64,000 nucleotides of DNA. Source: Actinomycetes bacterium. Its GTDB lineage: Bacteria > Actinomycetota > Humimicrobiia > JAHJRV01. The DNA lies in the NCBI GenBank assembly GCA_023129485.1, contig JAGMBY010000053.1:1214-65213 (forward strand), given 5' to 3'. The notes under the pieces were generated by a model. The model was not told the DNA's origin. It saw only the letters and a list, made by a program, of their open reading frames with translations, and did no database searches. Numbering within the stretch: position 1 is the stretch's first letter; each line of letters starts with the position of its first letter. Positions 19,159 through 55,693 of the stretch are shown here, one piece after another. The position numbers were made by a program, and so were the translations under genes.

Positions 19159-19215
19159 ATTTTTAATATTATTTATTTAAAAATCTGGTAAAATTAATAA
19201 AATTTAAATTTAGAA

Positions 19216-19355
19216 ATCTTCAGGGCAGGGTGTAATTCCCGACCGGCGGTAAAAGCCCGCGAGCTCTTATGGCAGATCTGGTTTTTTCCAGAGCCGACAG
19301 TATAGTCTGGATGGGAGAAGATTTGATATAAGCGTCAGGTTTTCTTCCTGACGCT
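19216..19355 (+). ncRNA. FMN riboswitch (RFN element) with downstream expression-platform hairpin
   Basis: CTTCAGGGCAGGGTGTAATTCCCGACCGGCGGTAAAAGCCCGCGAGC...CCAGAGCCGACAGTATAGTCTGGATGGGAGAAGA matches the RFN consensus, including the P1 pair TCTTC/GAAGA. Hairpin AGCGTCAGG-TTTTCTT-CCTGACGCT at 19331-19355. Followed by the rib operon. Confidence 0.95.
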
Positions 19356-47289: not shown

Positions 47290-47470
47290 CCTTGAAAACT
47301 GAATATCTGCTCCGAGTTAAACATCTAAGGATTTATCTATGATATTTAACCGGTAAGATAGTGAAAAATATCTTTAAGGGTCAGTTTTGGAAACAAATTG
47401 GCCTCCCGTGTTTGGAAAGGAGCAAGAAAATAAAACACCAACCTCTTTTCAACACGAGAGAAGGTGTTTT
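47290..47470 (+). promoter_or_regulatory. Structured leader with intrinsic terminator; candidate Moco/Tuco riboswitch
   Basis: Nested stems (AAATCCTT/AAGGATTT, GATATTT/AAATATC, CTCC/GGAG). Conserved-looking blocks CTCCGAG, GCCTCCC, GAAAGGAG. Terminator AACACC..GGTGTT followed by TTTTTTATTTT. Located upstream of tupABC-moaA-moaC. Confidence 0.5.
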
Positions 47471-48345
47471 TTATTTTAAATAGGAAATGTTATAAGGAGG
47501 GAATAATAAAGAAGTCTAAAAAAATATTAACTATCTTCACGATAATTATATTTTTAATTATTAATATAACTGGATGTATTCAAAAAAAATCTGTTGAGGA
47601 AAAAAGGGTCATATTAGCCACTACAACCAGTACCTATGATTCCGGTCTTTTAGACGAATTGATTCCGGTATTTGAAAAAAAATATAAAATTATAGTAACA
47701 CCAATTGCAGTTGGAACTGGAGAAGCATTGAAGATGGGAGAGAGGGGAGAAGCAGATGTTATTTTAGTTCATGCAAGATCTGAAGAAGATAAATTTGTAG
47801 AAGAGGGATATGGAGTAAACAGGAATGATGTGATGCATAATGATTTTGTGATAGTTGGTCCAGGGGAGGATCCTGCAAAGATAAAATATTTAGAAAATGT
47901 TTCAAATGTTTTTAAAACTATAAGTGAAAATGAGATTTTATTTACATCAAGAGGAGATGACTCTGGAACTCATAAGAAAGAAAAGAAGATATGGGAGGAA
48001 GCCGGAGTGCAGCCCAAGGGAGATTGGTATTTAGAAGTTGGTCAAGGAATGGCAAATACAATCATGGTAGCTAATGAAAAAAATGCTTATACACTAACTG
48101 ATAGGGGAACATATCTTTCTCAACAGGATAATATACAACTGGTAATATTATTTGAAGGAGATCCTCTTCTTTTGAATCCATATAGCATAATTGCAGTAAA
48201 TCCTGATAAGCATTCAAAGGTCAATTATGAAGGAGCAATGAGATTTATTGAATTCATAACTTCAAAGGAGGGTCAGAAGATAATAAAGAATTTTGGTATT
48301 GAAAAATATGGACAACCATTATTTTTCCCAGATGTAATCAAATAA
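47464..48345 (+). CDS. tupA: Tungstate/molybdate ABC transporter substrate-binding lipoprotein (TupA-like)
   Basis: TupA pattern TTTSTYDSGLLDEL...VGTGEAL..GERGEADVILVHA...VMHNDFVIVGP.EDPA. Lipobox ITGC. The GTG at 47464 lies inside the terminator stem; true start is likely near 47503-47509 after AAGGAGG. Confidence 0.8.
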   Translation: MFFILNRKCYKEGIIKKSKKILTIFTIIIFLIINITGCIQKKSVEEKRVILATTTSTYDSGLLDELIPVFEKKYKIIVTPIAVGTGEALKMGERGEADVILVHARSEEDKFVEEGYGVNRNDVMHNDFVIVGPGEDPAKIKYLENVSNVFKTISENEILFTSRGDDSGTHKKEKKIWEEAGVQPKGDWYLEVGQGMANTIMVANEKNAYTLTDRGTYLSQQDNIQLVILFEGDPLLLNPYSIIAVNPDKHSKVNYEGAMRFIEFITSKEGQKIIKNFGIEKYGQPLFFPDVIK

Positions 48346-48461
48346 TTAAATTTCTAAGATTAATTTTTTTAAATTTTTTGCAATTTTAAAATTAAATTCT
48401 AATTAAATTATAAAAATTTAAGATCAAATTCAATATTTTATAAGAATTATTATATTTAATA

Positions 48462-49169
48462 ATGGATTTATTTGTTGAAGGCATAAAACAAGCACTTTAT
48501 TTGCTTATTGAATTAAATAGAGAAATTTTTTCAATTGCTTGGCGTACTCTCTCAATAACAGGTCCTTCAGTGCTAATATCTTTACTTATAGGCATACCTT
48601 TGGGAGTAGTATTGGGACTTATGAAATTCCCTGGAAGAAAATTATTATTATCTCTCGTATATACTGGTATGGGATTTCCTCCCACAGTAATTGGATTATT
48701 TGTTGCAATGTTTCTTTGGAGAAGTGGACCTTTGGGTTTTCTATCCCTCTTATACACACCGACTGCAATGATCATAGCCCAAGTCATAATTGCCACTCCC
48801 ATAGTAATTGGTTTAATTCTTGCTGCAATGCAACAACTTGACCCTAAATTAAAACTTCAAGCTCTATCATTAGGTGCTAATAAACTGCAACTTTTTTGGA
48901 TATTGATTAAAGAAGCTAAAATTCCTTCATTAGCCGCAATTATGGCTGCGTTTGGTGGAATAATTTCTGAAGTGGGTTCAGCTATGATCGTAGGTGGGAA
49001 CATTAAAGGAAGAACTAGAATTCTAACCACTGCTATTGTTTTATTCACAAGAATGGGTAAATTTGAGAAAGCAATTGCAATATCAATAATACTTTTATTT
49101 TTATCTTTTCTTGCTAACTTTGCACTTACTTATATTCAACAAAGAGAGGGGATTTATTGGAAACGTTAA
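48462..49169 (+). CDS. tupB: ABC transporter permease (TupB-like)
   Basis: Six-TM ABC permease with EAA-like loop. Position between tupA and tupC. Confidence 0.8.
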   Translation: MDLFVEGIKQALYLLIELNREIFSIAWRTLSITGPSVLISLLIGIPLGVVLGLMKFPGRKLLLSLVYTGMGFPPTVIGLFVAMFLWRSGPLGFLSLLYTPTAMIIAQVIIATPIVIGLILAAMQQLDPKLKLQALSLGANKLQLFWILIKEAKIPSLAAIMAAFGGIISEVGSAMIVGGNIKGRTRILTTAIVLFTRMGKFEKAIAISIILLFLSFLANFALTYIQQREGIYWKR

Positions 49170-49266
49170 TATCTAATAGATATAAAAATAATATTGGAAT
49201 CAACAAAATTTAACATAGGGAGATTTTATTAGTAATGTTGATATTTAACAAAGTGGAGAAATAATA

Positions 49267-50355
49267 TTGGAAACATTATTAGAGGTAAAAAATCTGATAC
49301 ATAGATATAATCAAAAAGTAGTTTTAGATATTGAGGGATTTGAGTTGAGTAAAGGTGAAGTATTAGCATTAATTGGACCAAATGGAGCTGGTAAAAGTAC
49401 ATTTCTTAGAATCCTGAATCTTTTAGAAAAACCCACTCAAGGAATTGTTAATATTTTTGGAATTACACCAATCAATAATAGACAAAGACATAATCTTAGA
49501 AAGAAAATGGTTATGATATTTCAAGAACCCTTACTTTTTAAATCTACTGTTTATAATAATGTTTCATATGGTCTTAGAATGAGAAAAAAGAATAAAGATT
49601 TTATAAAGAATAAGGTTTTAGAAGCATTAGAAAAGTTTGGAATCTCTCATCTTATAAATAGACAGGCTGGAACACTTTCTGGAGGAGAGGCACAACGTGT
49701 TTCACTTGCAAGAGCATTGGTTTTAGAACCTGAAATTTTGTTATTGGATGAACCTTTCGCTGCATTAGATCAACCAACAAGGGAAGAGTTGAGAGACGAT
49801 TTATATAAAATAATCAGAAGAGAAAATCAAACAACATTACATGTGACCCATGATAGAAATGAGGCTTTGGTCATTTCTGACAATGTTGCTGTAATGAATG
49901 AAGGAGAGATTCTTCAGAGGGGAAGAACAGAGGATGTTTTTAATAAACCGATTGATGAATTTGTAGCAAATTTCTTAGGGGTGGAAACTATTCTATATGG
50001 AAAAATTACAAGTAAGAGCGATGGACTTTGTATAGTAAATATTAATAATCATAAGTTGGAAGTAGTATCTGATTTGGAGGTGGGTAAAAGAGTTATTACT
50101 TGTATTCGTCCTGAAAATGTAACACTTTTGAAATATTCATTAAAAGCGCCTCTTACAAGTGCAAGAAATTCATTTATCTCGACTATTAAAGATATTTCTT
50201 CCTACGGACTTGTTTATAGAGTTATTATGGATTGTGGTTTTAATTTGACATCATTCATAACAAAGGAATCCTTAGATAGATTAAATTTAAAGATTGGTGA
50301 AAAAATTATTGCAAATATAAAAGCAACTTCTATTCATCTATTATCACGAAAGTAA
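49267..50355 (+). CDS. tupC: ABC transporter ATP-binding protein with C-terminal TOBE/Mop domain (TupC/ModC-like)
   Basis: Walker A GPNGAGKST, signature LSGGE, Walker B LLLDEP and C-terminal transport-associated OB domain. TTG start after GGAGAAA. Confidence 0.85.
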   Translation: METLLEVKNLIHRYNQKVVLDIEGFELSKGEVLALIGPNGAGKSTFLRILNLLEKPTQGIVNIFGITPINNRQRHNLRKKMVMIFQEPLLFKSTVYNNVSYGLRMRKKNKDFIKNKVLEALEKFGISHLINRQAGTLSGGEAQRVSLARALVLEPEILLLDEPFAALDQPTREELRDDLYKIIRRENQTTLHVTHDRNEALVISDNVAVMNEGEILQRGRTEDVFNKPIDEFVANFLGVETILYGKITSKSDGLCIVNINNHKLEVVSDLEVGKRVITCIRPENVTLLKYSLKAPLTSARNSFISTIKDISSYGLVYRVIMDCGFNLTSFITKESLDRLNLKIGEKIIANIKATSIHLLSRK

Positions 50356-50375
50356 AATATTTAAATAAAGTCAAA

Positions 50376-51329
50376 ATGTTAGACAGGTTTGGTAGAAATA
50401 TTGAATATCTAAGAATCTCAGTAACTGACAGGTGCAATTTAAGATGTATTTATTGTATGCCTGAAGAGGGAATATCTCCAATTAGTCATGAACAAGTTCT
50501 CAGGTATGAAGAAATTGTAAAATTGGTAAAAATTGCTACAGAATTGGGAATAAATAAAATAAGAATCACTGGTGGTGAACCATTGGTGAGAAAAGAGTTA
50601 GTGAGTTTTATTGCACTATTAAGGGAAATTGATGAAATTGAGGACATATCTCTAACAACAAATGGAATATTTTTGGAAAGATATTTAGATAATCTAATAA
50701 GTGCAGGTTTAAATAGAATTAATATTAGTTTAGATTCATTAAATCCAAAAATTTACAAAAAAATAACTCGCAGAGATAATTTAGATGATGTAATTAGGGG
50801 ATTGAAAAAAGCAATTAAATCTTCAATTAGACCAATAAAGATAAATGTTGTATTAATGAAAAATTTAAATGATAATTTAAAGGATTTTGCTAAATTATCC
50901 ATCAAAGAACCTGTCCATGTAAGATTTATTGAATATATGCCCGTAATGGGTATAGAAAAAATAAGAGGGTTAACTGAAGAAGAAATGCTTGATGAGTTAA
51001 ATAAATATGGAGAATTAGAAAAAACCAAAAGTCCTTTTGGTCATGGGCCTGCAATATACTATAAATATAAAAATGCCAAAGGAACTATTGGTTTAATATG
51101 TTCTAATTCACATAATTTTTGTTATAAATGTAATAGATTAAGATTAACTTCTGATGGCAGACTTAAACCATGTCTTTTTGGTAAGGAAGAAGTAGATGTT
51201 AGAAGCTTATTAAGAACTAATGCTTCAAACAATGCTTTAAAAGAAGCTTTTAAAAATGCAATTTATCTTAAGCCAAGGGGTAGAAGTAAAAATAAAAGAA
51301 TTCATCATATGTATCAAATAGGAGGATAA
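50376..51329 (+). CDS. moaA: GTP 3-prime,8-cyclase MoaA
   Basis: Radical SAM CNLRCIYC at the N-terminus; C-terminal auxiliary-cluster cysteines (CSNSHNFCYKCNRLR). Confidence 0.9.
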   Translation: MLDRFGRNIEYLRISVTDRCNLRCIYCMPEEGISPISHEQVLRYEEIVKLVKIATELGINKIRITGGEPLVRKELVSFIALLREIDEIEDISLTTNGIFLERYLDNLISAGLNRINISLDSLNPKIYKKITRRDNLDDVIRGLKKAIKSSIRPIKINVVLMKNLNDNLKDFAKLSIKEPVHVRFIEYMPVMGIEKIRGLTEEEMLDELNKYGELEKTKSPFGHGPAIYYKYKNAKGTIGLICSNSHNFCYKCNRLRLTSDGRLKPCLFGKEEVDVRSLLRTNASNNALKEAFKNAIYLKPRGRSKNKRIHHMYQIGG

Positions 51330-51451
51330 TTAACCTAAGAGCAAGATTAAAAATATAATTAAAAAGGTATAAATTAAAAATATAAAGCAATACTCTAAAC
51401 TTTAAATCTCAATCCTCAATTTAGAGTAAAAAGAAATTTAAACTATTGAAG

Positions 51452-51508
51452 AGCTTTGGGTATACTTTCTTGACTGAAAATGTTTTCGAAAGTATACCGC
51501 AAAGCTAT
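51452..51508 (+). repeat. Intergenic palindrome repeat, copy E (core only)
   Basis: AGCTTTGGGTATACTTTCTTGACTGAAAATGTTTTCGAAAGTATACCGCAAAGCT. A bulged G replaces the bulged A, and TTGAC/GTT replaces TCGAC/GTC. Confidence 0.85.
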
Positions 51509-51560
51509 AAACCAAAATAGATTAAATTAAATAAAATGAAAGATAAAAAATGGAGGTTTT

Positions 51561-52091
51561 ATGAATAAAATAAACCATGTTGATTTTAAAGGTAAAGTAA
51601 AAATGGTAGATGTTTCTAAAAAGCCAATTACTTATAGAAAAGCTAAAGCACATGGCAAAATTTGGCTAAAAAAAGATACATTAGAGTTAATTAAGAATTT
51701 TGAAATAAAAAAGGGTGATGTTCTTTCAACTGCAAAGTTAGCTGGAATAATGGCTGCAAAAAGAACTCATGAACTAATTCCACTTTGCCATCCCTTATCG
51801 ATAACTAATATAGAAATTAAATTTGTTTTAGAAGAAAATGATAATAACAACAGCAATAATGATAATGAAAATGAAAATAATAATAGAATTTACAATATAA
51901 CTTGTATTTCAGAGGTCAAGTGTGATGGAAAAACTGGAGTTGAAATGGAAGCTATGATTTCTGTATCAATAGCACTTTTAACAATATATGATATGTGCAA
52001 AGCAGTTGATAGGGATATGAAAATTGGAGATATTATGTTAATTGAAAAGAGTGGAGGAAAAAGTGGATATTGGAAAAGAGAAAGGGATTAA
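51561..52091 (+). CDS. moaC: Cyclic pyranopterin monophosphate synthase MoaC
   Basis: MoaC core (KAHGKIWLK, GVEMEAMISVSIALLTIYDMCKA) with an N/D-rich low-complexity insertion. GGAGG RBS. Confidence 0.9.
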   Translation: MNKINHVDFKGKVKMVDVSKKPITYRKAKAHGKIWLKKDTLELIKNFEIKKGDVLSTAKLAGIMAAKRTHELIPLCHPLSITNIEIKFVLEENDNNNSNNDNENENNNRIYNITCISEVKCDGKTGVEMEAMISVSIALLTIYDMCKAVDRDMKIGDIMLIEKSGGKSGYWKRERD

Positions 52092-52133
52092 AAAAATTAA
52101 TTTTAATTTTATTATAATTATTCTTGACCAAAT

Positions 52134-52162
52134 AATTATATAGAGTTAAAATAAATAAAGGC
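52134..52162 (+). promoter_or_regulatory. Sigma-A-like promoter (TTGACC - 17 nt - TAAAAT) at the start of an ORF-free region
   Basis: Read directly from the sequence. Would drive a transcript ending at the terminator at 52677-52706. Confidence 0.4.
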
Positions 52163-52676
52163 TTGAAACAGATTAAGCTGTAAAAAATTAAAGCTTATAA
52201 TATAAATATAAGAAATAAAGATTGTGGTATAGATAATATATAAAATTTACAATTTAGTAGTTTTTAACATATAGTAAGCTCTAAATGTCATTTAGGGATT
52301 TGATATTCTAAAAATTTAATAAATTTTCCAAAATCTATTTATCACTTTCAGAATTATTTATAACAAATAATATTAGAATATTGAATATAAAAAAATAACA
52401 ATTATTGGAATTTTTATTATTTTTAGAATTAAAAAATTTTTTTAGATGAACTATTTAAAATGTAAAAATTTAATCAATAAATATAAAAAAATGAAGATAT
52501 TAAAAATTTAAAAGTATATATAATTTATATTTCTTTAATTTAAATATACCTTCATTTAGATTATTTTTATTTATTGTTTTTAATTAATAAATATTATCTA
52601 TAATATTAAAAAGTACTATAATCTTAAAAAGTAAAAATTATAATAAAGTATAAAAAATTAAATAGTAAATTGTTTC

Positions 52677-52706
52677 AAGCCGAGATTTACTCGGCTTTTT
52701 TATTAT
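52677..52706 (+). terminator. Rho-independent terminator (AAGCCGAG-ATTTA-CTCGGCTT followed by TTTTATTAT)
   Basis: 8-bp GC-containing stem plus T-run, + strand orientation. Sits 7 nt before a GGGGG RBS for rny. Confidence 0.75.
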
Positions 52707-52724
52707 CTGAAAGGGGGAATTAAA

Positions 52725-54272
52725 ATTAATAGATTACTAATTTATAACATAATAGCAGCAATCATAGGAGTTGTTTTAGGTTTAGTAGTTGGAGACTGGA
52801 TTAAAAAGTTCATATTTAAGGGTCGTAAAGAGAAAGCAGAAAAATCAGCAAAAGAAATAATTGAATCAGCAAAAAAAGAAGCAGATGCTATTAAAAAGGA
52901 AATGATGGTTGAAACGAAAGAAGAAGTTTATAAAATTCGAGTTATAGAAGAGGAAAAACTGAGAAGTCAGAAGAACGATTTGAGAAAATTAGAAGGTCGT
53001 CTAGCTCATAGAGAGAGCATTATTGATAAAAAATCAATTAAGTTGGACAAGAGAGAATATTTAGTTTCAAGAAAAGAAAAGGAAGTTAATTATCTTAAGG
53101 TAGAGTTAGAAAAGAATCTACAGGAACAAAGAAAAAAGTTAGAAAGTATTGCTGATTTATCTTCTACTGATGCTAAAGCACTTCTAATGAAGAGATTAGA
53201 AGAGGAAGCCAGGTTTGATAGCGCTAAAAAGATAAGGGAGATAGAAGAAAATGCGGGGGAAATAGCAGAAAGGAAAGCGAAGGAAATTATTTCAACAGCA
53301 ATTCAAAGATATGCTCATGACCATGTTGCAGAAGCCACAGTTTCTGTTGTCGATCTACCAAATGATGAAATGAAGGGGAGAATTATAGGAAGAGAAGGAA
53401 GAAATATCAGGGCATTTGAAAAATTGACTGGAGTGAACTTAATAGTGGATGATACACCTGAAGCAGTTATACTTTCATGCTTTAATCCAGTTAGGAGAGA
53501 AAAAGCAAGAATTGCATTGGAAGAATTGGTTGCTGACGGTAGAATTCATCCAGCTAAAATTGAGGAAAAATTTGATAAAGCAAATAGAATTGTTGATAAT
53601 CAAATAAAAATTGCAGGTGAAAAGGCAGTTTTTAATGTTGGTATAGCAGGTCTAAATAAAGATCTCATAAGAGTATTAGGAAGATTAAAATATAGAACAA
53701 GTTTTGGCCAAAATGTGCTTCAACATTCTATCGAAGTTGCTCATTTAGTAGGAATCATAGCTTCGGAGTTAGGAGTAAATGTTAAAAAAGCTAAAAGAGC
53801 CGGCTTGCTCCACGACATTGGAAAGGCTATTGATCATGAGGTGGAGGGTTCACACGCTTCAATTGGAGCTAATCTAGCAAAGAAATATAATGAATCTAGA
53901 GATATCGTTCACGCAATTCATGCACACCACGAAGAAATACAAGCACAAAACATTTTGGATGTTATAGTTTCAGCTGCAGATGCTGTTTCAAGTGCAAGGC
54001 CTGGTATAAGACAGGAAACTTTAGAGAGTTACATAAAAAGATTGGAAAATCTTGAGAGTATAGGCAAGGAATTTGATGGTGTTGAGAAGTGCTATGCAAT
54101 TCAAGCTGGAAGGGAAATTAGAGTAATGGTTTACCCAGATATGGTTGATGATGATCAAGCTGCAAGAATAGCTAGAGAATTGTCTAAAAAGATTGAGGAA
54201 GAACTAGAATATCCGGGTCAAATAAAGGTAACAGTGATTAGGGAAAAAAGAGCAATTGAATTTGCAAAATAA
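52725..54272 (+). CDS. rny: Ribonuclease Y (N-terminal TM helix, KH domain, HD domain)
   Basis: KH ([12 protein letters not shown]) and HD ([15 protein letters not shown]) domains. The ORF track starts at ATG 52902, but the same frame is open from 52644 and encodes the expected TM anchor [18 protein letters not shown] plus a coiled coil. No ATG/GTG/TTG is available, so initiation is inferred at an ATT or ATA near 52719-52749, after AAGGGGGAA. Confidence 0.8.
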
Positions 54273-54331
54273 AATTATATAATATATTCATTGTCTAATA
54301 ATTATGAAATAATTATAAAAGTATAGAAAAT

Positions 54332-54379
54332 CGCTCCTTAACAAGGAAGAGATGTTTATTCTCTTCCTTGTTTTTTATA
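54332..54379 (+). terminator. Rho-independent terminator after rny (CAAGGAAGAGA-loop-CTCTTCCTTG plus TTTTTTAT)
   Basis: Perfect 10-bp stem followed by a T-run. Confidence 0.8.
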
Positions 54380-54736
54380 AGTTATTATTGATTAAAAGTG
54401 AAGAATAAGTTAAAATTTAACTAAAAAGTATAACAGTATAGTTTAACTTAATAGTTATCAATTATAAAAATAAAGAGGAGATTTAGGCTTATTGTAGAAT
54501 ATAAATCATAAACATAAATTACTACTTGAAATCTTAAAAATTATAAGACTTTCGTAAAAAAATAAGTATTAAAATAAGGAACTTCTAAAATAAAACTTCA
54601 TTGTATATATATAGTAGAAATCATTAAATAATTAAAACAAAAAATATGAAGAATATTAAAATTAAAAAATATTTGACAGAATAAGAAACAAAAGAAAAAT
54701 AGAATTGTAGTAATAGTTACTACAGGAGGTAAAAAA

Positions 54737-55021: not shown

Positions 55022-55693
55022 TAACAATTCTTCTTTACAATTGAAAATAGAATATAGTATAAAATTAAGAACTATATCAATAAGATAACAAGTCTTTTAA
55101 TTATGAATATCTAAAAAATAATTATTAGTATATTATTGTTACAAAATATTATTAAAGTAAAGAAGAATACTTTTTCTATAACCTCTCTTTGTTATTCCTT
55201 TTTCTTTTATTTATACATATCTTTATCACTATTCACCATAGTCAATTGAATTTATATATTTTACTGGAATTTTTTATTAAATCTTTTATTAAAATGATTA
55301 ATTGTTGAACTATTTACCCTTTTGATATTAGTAAGATTTGACTGGTACAGATTTCCATACTAAAATCTTTTCATAATAATTTATTAGATGGTTTTTTATA
55401 AATAAATAAAGCAACAAAGGAATAATTATCTCTATTAAGAAATCAAATGTTGAGTTTACATATCATATTATGAAGACTTTGAAAGTCTACGATGATGAAG
55501 TTTTAAGTGAATTCGTAGTTTTTTGGAATTGTCAAATAAAGTAGTATTATTAATAAAGGAATGTATATAAAAATATTAGTATTAAAGACTTTAAATTTAA
55601 AACTAATTGGATCAAGAAATAGTAATCAATTATTAATGAAAAAACTATAAAAACTTAATTTTATTAAATAAATTTTATTAAATAAAAGTAAAA

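Follow-up and report, generated by a model that had tools for sequence, protein, structure and literature searches.

A candidate transcription attenuator in the long leader of the RNase Y gene in Candidatus Humimicrobiia

The stretch of DNA analysed here, called the window, comprises 64,000 nucleotides (nt) of contig JAGMBY010000053.1 from an Actinomycetes bacterium of the clade Candidatus Humimicrobiia (Actinomycetota). In the window, the stop codon of moaC ends at 52091 and is followed by a gap of 633 nt, after which rny, the gene for RNase Y, begins. RNase Y initiates the decay of most messenger RNAs (mRNAs) in many Gram-positive bacteria, and its dosage must be kept within narrow limits. 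The gap contains a predicted promoter, two complementary arms separated by an A/U-rich spacer, a terminator-like hairpin and a Shine-Dalgarno sequence (Table 1). This layout suggests a leader that may control read-through into rny, and it is the subject of this report.

Table 1. Features of the rny leader and of rny, in positions of the window
Feature	Position	Strand	Description
Predicted sigma-70-type promoter of the rny leader	52124..52152	+	-35 TTGACC at 52124-52129, 17-nt spacer, -10 TAAAAT at 52147-52152 (promoter scan)
5' arm	52160..52170	+	GGCTTGAAACA (RNA GGCUUGAAACA); first base 8 nt past the -10 hexamer
Weak local partner of the 5' arm	52173..52179	+	UUAAGCU; predicted hairpin of 7 base pairs (bp) with G·U pairs (step-wise folding)
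A/U-rich spacer	52171..52670	+	G+C about 10-15%; without a conserved domain
3' arm	52671..52681	+	TGTTTCAAGCC (RNA UGUUUCAAGCC); exact complement of the 5' arm
Intrinsic-terminator-like hairpin	52677..52705	+	AAGCCGAG at 52677-52684, loop ATTTA, CTCGGCTT at 52690-52697, then TTTTATTAT; as RNA AAGCCGAG / AUUUA / CUCGGCUU (52677-52697), tail UUUUAUUAU
Shine-Dalgarno sequence of rny	52710..52718	+	AAAGGGGGA; 12 nt past the hairpin stem
rny (RNase Y)	52725..54272	+	515 codons; non-canonical ATT start at 52725

An earlier note on this DNA had claimed that no open reading frame (ORF) longer than about 25 codons lies between moaC and rny. This holds: the ORF list contains none of at least 25 codons inside 52144-52724. 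The same note had the promoter hexamers, their 17-nt spacing and the sequence of the 5' arm right but placed both features 10 nt too far downstream, at 52134-52162 and 52170-52180. Its 3' arm, the exact reverse complementarity of the two arms and its terminator stem are confirmed in position and sequence. The last five nt of the 3' arm, AAGCC at 52677-52681, are also the first five nt of the terminator stem, so that pairing of the arms and formation of the terminator exclude each other, as the note had recognized.

The hairpin has an 8-bp stem with five G-C pairs and a 5-nt loop, and its free energy is -11.5 kcal/mol when it is folded alone. It is the sole terminator-like match in 51300-53000. 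Convincing intrinsic terminators are few in the window. Another belongs to the platform of a flavin mononucleotide (FMN) riboswitch at 19212-19355 (116.9 bits), which has its own terminator hairpin at 19331-19355. The 12-nt interval between the hairpin and the Shine-Dalgarno sequence is too small for a promoter, and therefore every rny transcript must traverse the hairpin.

The start of rny is unusual. The first ATG, GTG or TTG of the frame does not occur before 52902, yet the conserved N-terminal membrane helix is encoded from 52725, so that translation must start at the ATT at 52725. The GGGGG of the Shine-Dalgarno sequence precedes this codon by 7 nt. The product matches the Pfam families RNase_Y_N, KH and HD, and the NCBI product of a relative (P0122) also has 515 amino acids. 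The context of the ATT, AAAATTAAT (52719-52727), is kept in all clade relatives, for example at the loci L103, L104, L110 and L126 (loci are cited here by label), and the Shine-Dalgarno sequence of the relatives is AAAGGAGG or AAGGAGGG. In the more distant loci described below as out-groups, the start codon is ATA in L132, ATG in L131 and L133, and probably ATC in L130. Because of the ATT start, rny is misannotated by gene callers in the clade. The miscalls in metagenomes include a truncation to 455 or 456 amino acids, a TTG start within the Shine-Dalgarno sequence and an extension over the hairpin.

Promoter-like matches are no commoner than in shuffled sequence anywhere in the window. Since the scan matches are not enriched, the promoter call rests on conservation and not on the scan. 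From its position we infer that the 5' end of the transcript is at 52159/52160, at the 5' arm. The DNA in this start region reads AAAGGCUUGA. It contains only two G residues, and the entire 11-nt arm is templated.

The earlier note had held an 11-nt inverted match to be improbable by chance. In 2000 dinucleotide-preserving shuffles of the 633-nt region, a perfect inverted repeat of at least 11 nt was present in 92%, so the length of the repeat alone means little. The claim stands only when the G/C content is considered, since a perfect inverted repeat of at least 11 nt with at least four G/C in the arm occurred in 0.05% of the shuffles. With up to one mismatch allowed, the 11-mer occurs at only these two sites in the 64 kilobases (kb), and a metagenome scan with the hairpin pattern, which bears on the search for other copies that the note had proposed, found no copy in another context. 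Taken alone, the inverted repeat and the promoter are suggestive, not compelling.

The comparison with relatives carries more of the argument. In Candidatus Humimicrobiia, 11 distinct leaders were obtained from contig look-ups and from a metagenome scan with the hairpin pattern, and RNase Y of these 11 relatives is 78-96% identical to that of the window. Look-ups of the exact protein returned only near-identical metagenome contigs (>99.3% identity). In a protein search of genome contigs with RNase Y, all the relatives retrieved had 52-58% identity and most of them were Clostridia; the clade was not among them. The RNase Y homologues form a series of 96, 95, 92, 80 and 78% identity, below which come many of about 60%. 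All members of the clade have the gene order moaC-rny-spoVS. The moaC-rny junction, for which the earlier note had suggested such a comparison, contains the element in all clade relatives, with the promoter, arms and hairpin kept and the interior diverged.

Two blocks of the leader are near-invariant. Block A reads TTCTTGAC-N17-TA(A/G)AAT, 7 nt and GGCUUGA, and its promoter part is conserved in 11 of 11 relatives. Since it puts GGCUUGA 7 nt after the -10 hexamer, the 5' arm sits where a sigma-70 promoter would initiate transcription. Block B consists of AAUU(G/A)UUUCAAGCCGAG, the loop, CUCGGCUUUUU, the Shine-Dalgarno sequence and AAAAUUAAU with the ATT start. The UCAAGCC-GAG hairpin and the U-tract are likewise kept in all 11 relatives. 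The spacer interior (about 330-520 nt) is too diverged between sub-lineages for reliable alignment. It evolves at a roughly neutral rate and accepts large insertions and deletions; the distance from promoter to hairpin ranges from 361 to 551 nt across the clade, and the spacer of L100 is 189 nt shorter. Within the species, 11 of the 12 single-nucleotide polymorphisms in the gap fall in the spacer and the other one separates the -10 hexamer from the arm, so that the elements themselves are free of them.

The substitutions in the arms are few and of one kind. A 9-bp core, GGCUUGAAA, is kept clade-wide, and the only changes are C3U (in L123), A8G (in L103) and C10U (in L103 and L107). Among the 11 pairs of the arms, seven show no change; a further three vary on the 5' side only, in four sequences altogether, and every variant forms a G·U pair. 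Wobble that is restricted to the 5' side suits an RNA made from the + strand. The long-range helix is 9-10 bp in other sub-lineages. Paired cells amount to 91.7%, and a shift of the partner by 1-3 columns lowers this to 15-54%.

The more distant comparison covers four out-group rny loci, L130-L133, whose RNase Y is about 60% identical. The moa operon is absent there, and recX or another gene precedes rny. In L130 (45% G+C), the order is TTGACA, 18 nt, TAGAAT, 7 nt and then GGCUAAUGCUUUUUGCUU, which pairs with AAGCGAAAAGUAUUAAGCC. The latter segment runs into a hairpin, UUAAGCCGAGC/GCUCGGCUUAA, that immediately precedes the Shine-Dalgarno sequence. The duplex has a free energy of -23 to -34 kcal/mol (z -6.3). 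In L132, an extended -10 element, TGCTATAAT, is followed by UCGGCAAAUAAUGCUUUGCUUAAAGUG, which pairs with CACUUUUAAGUAAAGUAUUUUUGCCGA (-33 kcal/mol, z -6.8). The latter runs into GCCGAGC/GCUCGGU and then seven U. L131 (20% G+C) has a distinct hairpin, CGAGCA/UGCUCG with nine U, directly before AGGAGG-ATG. About 20 nt past its predicted start lies an orphan copy of the descending strand, AUUGCUCGUUUUUU, which is complementary to the ascending strand; this duplex of -16.1 kcal/mol was matched by none of 1000 shuffles. The RNase Y group related to that of L131 has 74 members and lies outside the covariation sample. In L133, the promoter, the 7-nt gap and GGCU are all present, and the distance between promoter and 5' arm in L130 and L133 equals that in the window.

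In three out-groups with different arms, the 5'-proximal RNA thus pairs with the ascending strand of the hairpin over 16-30 bp, with z values of -5 to -7. The helix takes up 5-6 nt of the ascending strand in each out-group. A GCCGAG/CUCGGC stem is common to L130, L132 and L133, and position 4 of the arm is an A-U pair in L132 and a U-A pair in the window and L130.

When the whole leader (52159-52730) is folded, the minimum-energy and centroid structures alike contain the long-range helix instead of the terminator, with a z of -2.8. When each structure is enforced, the energies are -91.8 kcal/mol for the helix and -90.8 kcal/mol for the terminator, a difference of about 1 kcal/mol; these are equilibrium values and say nothing on kinetics across the 500-nt loop. 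Step-wise folding follows the 5' arm as the transcript grows. Up to a transcript end of 52660, the arm is in its local hairpin and about 40% unpaired. At ends of 52684-52689, when the terminator still lacks its descending strand, pairing with the 3' arm has risen to about 99%. The hairpin with the segment at 52173-52179, which is conserved in the closest relatives only, may hold the 5' arm in these models until the 3' arm is made. The ensemble favours the helix in the window, L100, L110, L104, L131, L132 and L133, and the terminator hairpin in L103, L123, L126 and L130. Such a split among lineages is expected of a poised switch.

From these observations, we give a little better than an even chance to the reading that the gap is the 5' leader of rny mRNA and is built as a transcription attenuator, in which the 5' end of the transcript acts as the antiterminator. 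The leader predicted from the conserved promoter is about 565 nt long. Transcription would begin at about 52159/52160, and the RNA would start with GGCUUGAAACA. The spacer, some 500 nt of little else than A and U, would be made next, followed by UGUUUCAAGCC and then by the rest of the terminator hairpin and the U-tract, 12 nt before the Shine-Dalgarno sequence of rny. If the 5' arm pairs with UGUUUCAAGCC, it would cover five of the eight nt of the ascending strand, so that no terminator would form and polymerase would read through into rny. If the 5' arm is unavailable, the terminator would form and transcription would halt before rny. The weak ATT start would be a second brake, acting on translation, and so would the ATA of L132 and the probable ATC of L130. 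An antiterminating 5' end was one of two readings offered in the earlier note, and it gains support from the conserved elements, the wobble-compatible arms, the architecture of the out-groups and the near-equal energies of the two folds.

Several points weigh against this attenuator. In the clade, no arm pair has substitutions in both of its partners, and the shuffle control does not reach significance; the clade thus supports conservation and wobble, not covariation. The terminator stem never varies in the 11 relatives and is therefore uninformative for covariation. The covariation seen with the out-groups involves 3-4 lineages that were matched by architecture rather than by a formal test. 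Among them, the pairing in L133 is weak and shifted in register (z -0.6), and the hairpin of L130 has no clean U-tract (UUAAUUAAUUU) and may be non-terminating. The terminator may also win kinetically whatever the equilibrium energies, since hairpins form locally in less time than a helix spanning 500 nt. Read-through transcripts from moaC carry the 5' arm as well. Finally, the start of transcription, termination and read-through are themselves predictions, and the signal proposed below is put forward by analogy.

A sensor was looked for in the spacer. Rfam finds no family in the gap, either at the gathering threshold on the whole window or at E values up to 10 on 51900-52950. On the whole window it finds only the Moco and FMN riboswitches, both elsewhere, and on 13 related loci only tRNAs. 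Neither Rfam nor the comparison of spacers identifies a ligand aptamer, a tRNA-binding site, a protein site or a leader peptide. The ATG-led ORFs considered as a leader peptide have no Shine-Dalgarno sequence and are lost in L102, and no small ORF is conserved. A ligand sensor is argued against because the spacer is near-pure A/U and variable, and has no conserved domain, known aptamer or leader peptide. The leader thus lies outside every curated RNA family and is a candidate for a new family of cis-regulatory RNA in the uncultivated Humimicrobiia and in related Actinomycetota.

The spacer has other features. It includes 18-nt tandem repeats at 52598-52633; their unit, CTATAAT(A/C)TTAAAAAGTA, extends over 52598-52669 in two good and two degenerate copies, each ending in AGUA. 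The leaders of L100, L102 and L129 have one copy fewer than the window. All lineages have a UUUUAAGUA-like motif upstream of the hairpin, which belongs to the 3' arm in L132. A replication origin was also considered for this AT-rich region and rejected, as the GC skew is positive throughout and no cluster of DnaA boxes was seen on reading.

Because RNase Y of Bacillus subtilis autoregulates by cutting its own 164-nt 5' untranslated region (UTR) at many positions (PMC10303841), RNase Y is proposed as the signal. We suggest, with low confidence, that the attenuator responds to cleavage by RNase Y of the long, unstructured, fast-evolving, AU-rich spacer, which is of the type that this enzyme cuts. 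If the spacer were cut while polymerase had yet to arrive at the 3' arm, the antiterminator arm would be lost from the transcript and transcription would terminate; the outcome would be negative feedback on the transcription of rny. A fuller version is somewhat more doubtful still. In such a 'tether-cutting' attenuator, free RNase Y would be read co-transcriptionally through the severing of an AU-rich tether, and the sensor would be a cleavable length of RNA instead of an aptamer; the arrangement would govern the principal RNase of decay initiation throughout deep-branching Actinomycetota and go together with an AUU or AUA start.

To our knowledge, the feedback of rny known so far is based on decay only, in B. 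subtilis. If the attenuator is real, it would add a layer of transcriptional control on rny, with the transcript's own 5' end as the antiterminator across a distance of 120-520 nt. Alternative pairing of so long a range would also be rare among bacterial leaders.

The leaders of Firmicutes offer a wider comparison. Among 72 distinct Firmicutes rny leaders, no comparable long-range duplex was found; the best has a z of -3.7 and is gapped. In the 90 nt upstream of the start at the Firmicutes loci L020-L099, many Clostridia have conserved motifs before the Shine-Dalgarno sequence. A large metagenome group of 'Eubacteriales'/Clostridia has a hairpin, UUAUCAGCCGAG...CUCGGGAUAA, with a CCGAG/CUCGG core as in the window, and Sedimentibacter-like genomes have UUUCGCAGCUUGAAAAUUUAAUA, which contains GCUUGAAAA as in the 5' arm of the window. 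On their sequence, these motifs may form a wider family of rny-leader motifs.

The same elements can be explained in other ways. The arm duplex may be a processing stalk that is cut by an endonuclease such as RNase III, as in rRNA precursors. The AU-rich leader would be excised, and the mature rny mRNA would start with the hairpin and be shielded from decay that depends on the 5' end. The helices of several loci have lengths suited to RNase III (about 27-30 bp in L132, about 18-21 bp in L130 and about 23 imperfect bp in L104 and L126), while the perfect helix in the window clade, at 9-11 bp, is short for this enzyme. The hairpin of L130 without a proper U-tract would also fit a stalk, as would the many Firmicutes rny genes whose short leader seemingly starts with a CCGAG/CUCGG hairpin before the Shine-Dalgarno sequence. 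However, the U-tract after the hairpin is retained in all lineages but L130, and the helix always invades the ascending strand, which a switch needs and a stalk does not. We regard such a stalk as unlikely, if still a serious rival.

It is more improbable that promoter, arms and hairpin are independent elements with incidental complementarity. The hairpin would then end the upstream operon or a non-coding leader RNA, expression of rny would depend on leaky read-through or on a weak promoter right before the hairpin, and GGCUUGA would be kept for the promoter or for initiation. The hairpin is indeed the first terminator after the moa operon, with none between moaC and the promoter, and the lack of two-sided covariation in the clade counts in favour of this explanation. 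Several lineages have sequences resembling a -10 hexamer (GTAAAT, TAAAAT, TAAAGT) some 7 nt ahead of the hairpin, but these have no -35 hexamer. Incidental complementarity fits poorly with the rarity of G/C-containing 11-mer inverted repeats in the shuffles, with the wobble compatibility of all arm substitutions and with the complementarity kept in 3-4 out-groups whose arms differ.

We consider it very improbable that the arms are a pair of DNA operators, bound by a protein that loops the AT-rich DNA and represses the rny promoter. An exact inverted repeat around about 500 bp of bendable AT-rich DNA, with one arm abutting the promoter, speaks for such a pair. Against it, the C to T and A to G changes in the arms keep G·U pairs in RNA but break the symmetry in DNA, the out-group arms of 18-30 nt with bulges are unlike operators, and the arms are anywhere between about 120 and 520 bp apart.

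The other reading of the earlier note, a non-autonomous insertion resembling a miniature inverted-repeat transposable element between moaC and rny, was prompted by the perfect 11-bp inverted repeat that bounds about 520 bp of AT-rich non-coding DNA, and it has almost no probability left: the flanks (AATAAA and GAGATT) show no target-site duplication, no second copy is found in the 64 kb, in the metagenome scan the 3' arm with the hairpin is confined to rny leaders (the remaining matches are unrelated terminators), the segment is at the orthologous site in every relative from >99% to about 60% RNase Y identity with a diverging interior and no insertion polymorphism, and the ends of the repeat coincide with the predicted transcription start and the terminator stem.

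The surroundings of the leader were also compared. A Moco riboswitch at 47298-47438 (77.9 bits) precedes an operon at 47464-52091 with genes of a molybdate-type ABC transporter, moaA and moaC. This moa block stands between recX and rny in the window. In the out-groups L130, L132 and L133, recA-recX is followed directly by rny, and the block therefore looks inserted into an ancestral recA-recX-rny order. MoaC (51561-52091) has an Asn/Asp-rich low-complexity insert, EENDNNNSNNDNENENNN, at about 51830-51890, which is missing from the MoaC proteins of relatives (160-169 amino acids). In L130, an ORF of 92 amino acids called at 1934-2212 has no Pfam match and is probably a spurious gene call; it extends from the end of recX into the predicted leader and covers the 5' arm (about 2027-2044). 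Downstream of rny, the gap to spoVS (54273-54736, 464 nt) is AT-rich and non-coding and contains the rny terminator at 54340-54372. The gap between spoVS and the PHP gene (55022-55693, 672 nt) is AT-rich and non-coding as well. Long leaders may be common around this locus.

Long structured leaders with an autoregulatory function precede the E. coli genes rne and rnc/pnp, where feedback acts by cleavage and decay of the complete mRNA. As at the locus described here, a long leader stands before a major ribonuclease gene. The ribonucleases are RNase E and RNase III, however, and the leaders have no sequence relation to this one and no pair of terminator and antiterminator. In the pyrG gene of B. 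subtilis, the nascent 5' end reportedly pairs with the 5' strand of the terminator and blocks termination, and the pairing segment is said to be made by reiterative addition of G that is sensitive to cytidine triphosphate, in a leader that is much shorter. The attenuator proposed for rny would make the same use of the transcript 5' end against the ascending strand of a terminator. In contrast to pyrG, its arm is templated, no homopolymer run is present at the start, and the two arms are 120-520 nt apart. For B. subtilis pyrG attenuation, a passage of PMC4448216 cites Meng, Turnbough and Switzer 2004.

Riboswitches and other attenuator platforms, such as the FMN riboswitch of the window, also place a mutually exclusive terminator and antiterminator between the promoter and the start codon. 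Unlike them, the rny leader has no conserved aptamer or sensor between its arms, and its antiterminator strand is hundreds of nt away instead of adjacent. A long-range helix is also known in the B. subtilis hbs mRNA, where about 14 bp joining the 5' UTR to the 3' UTR modulate the action of RNase Y (PMC5737220). There, the partner is in the 3' UTR, the effect is on cleavage and stability, no terminator is involved, and hbs is not a ribonuclease gene.

The closest counterpart is the rny leader of B. subtilis (PMC10303841). It precedes a gene for the same product and, like the one predicted here, has a sigma-A-type promoter and is long. The enzyme level is fed back through the leader of its own gene, and the RNA that RNase Y cleaves is AU-rich and single-stranded. 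A hairpin of the kind found here is absent from the Bacillaceae loci L066, L067 and L073. The B. subtilis leader acts by decay, in which a cut by RNase Y is followed by trimming by RNase J1 up to the ribosome, and PMC10303841 does not mention a terminator. The leader predicted in Humimicrobiia, in contrast, is about 565 nt long and combines a terminator-like hairpin with a complementary arm at the very 5' end of the transcript.

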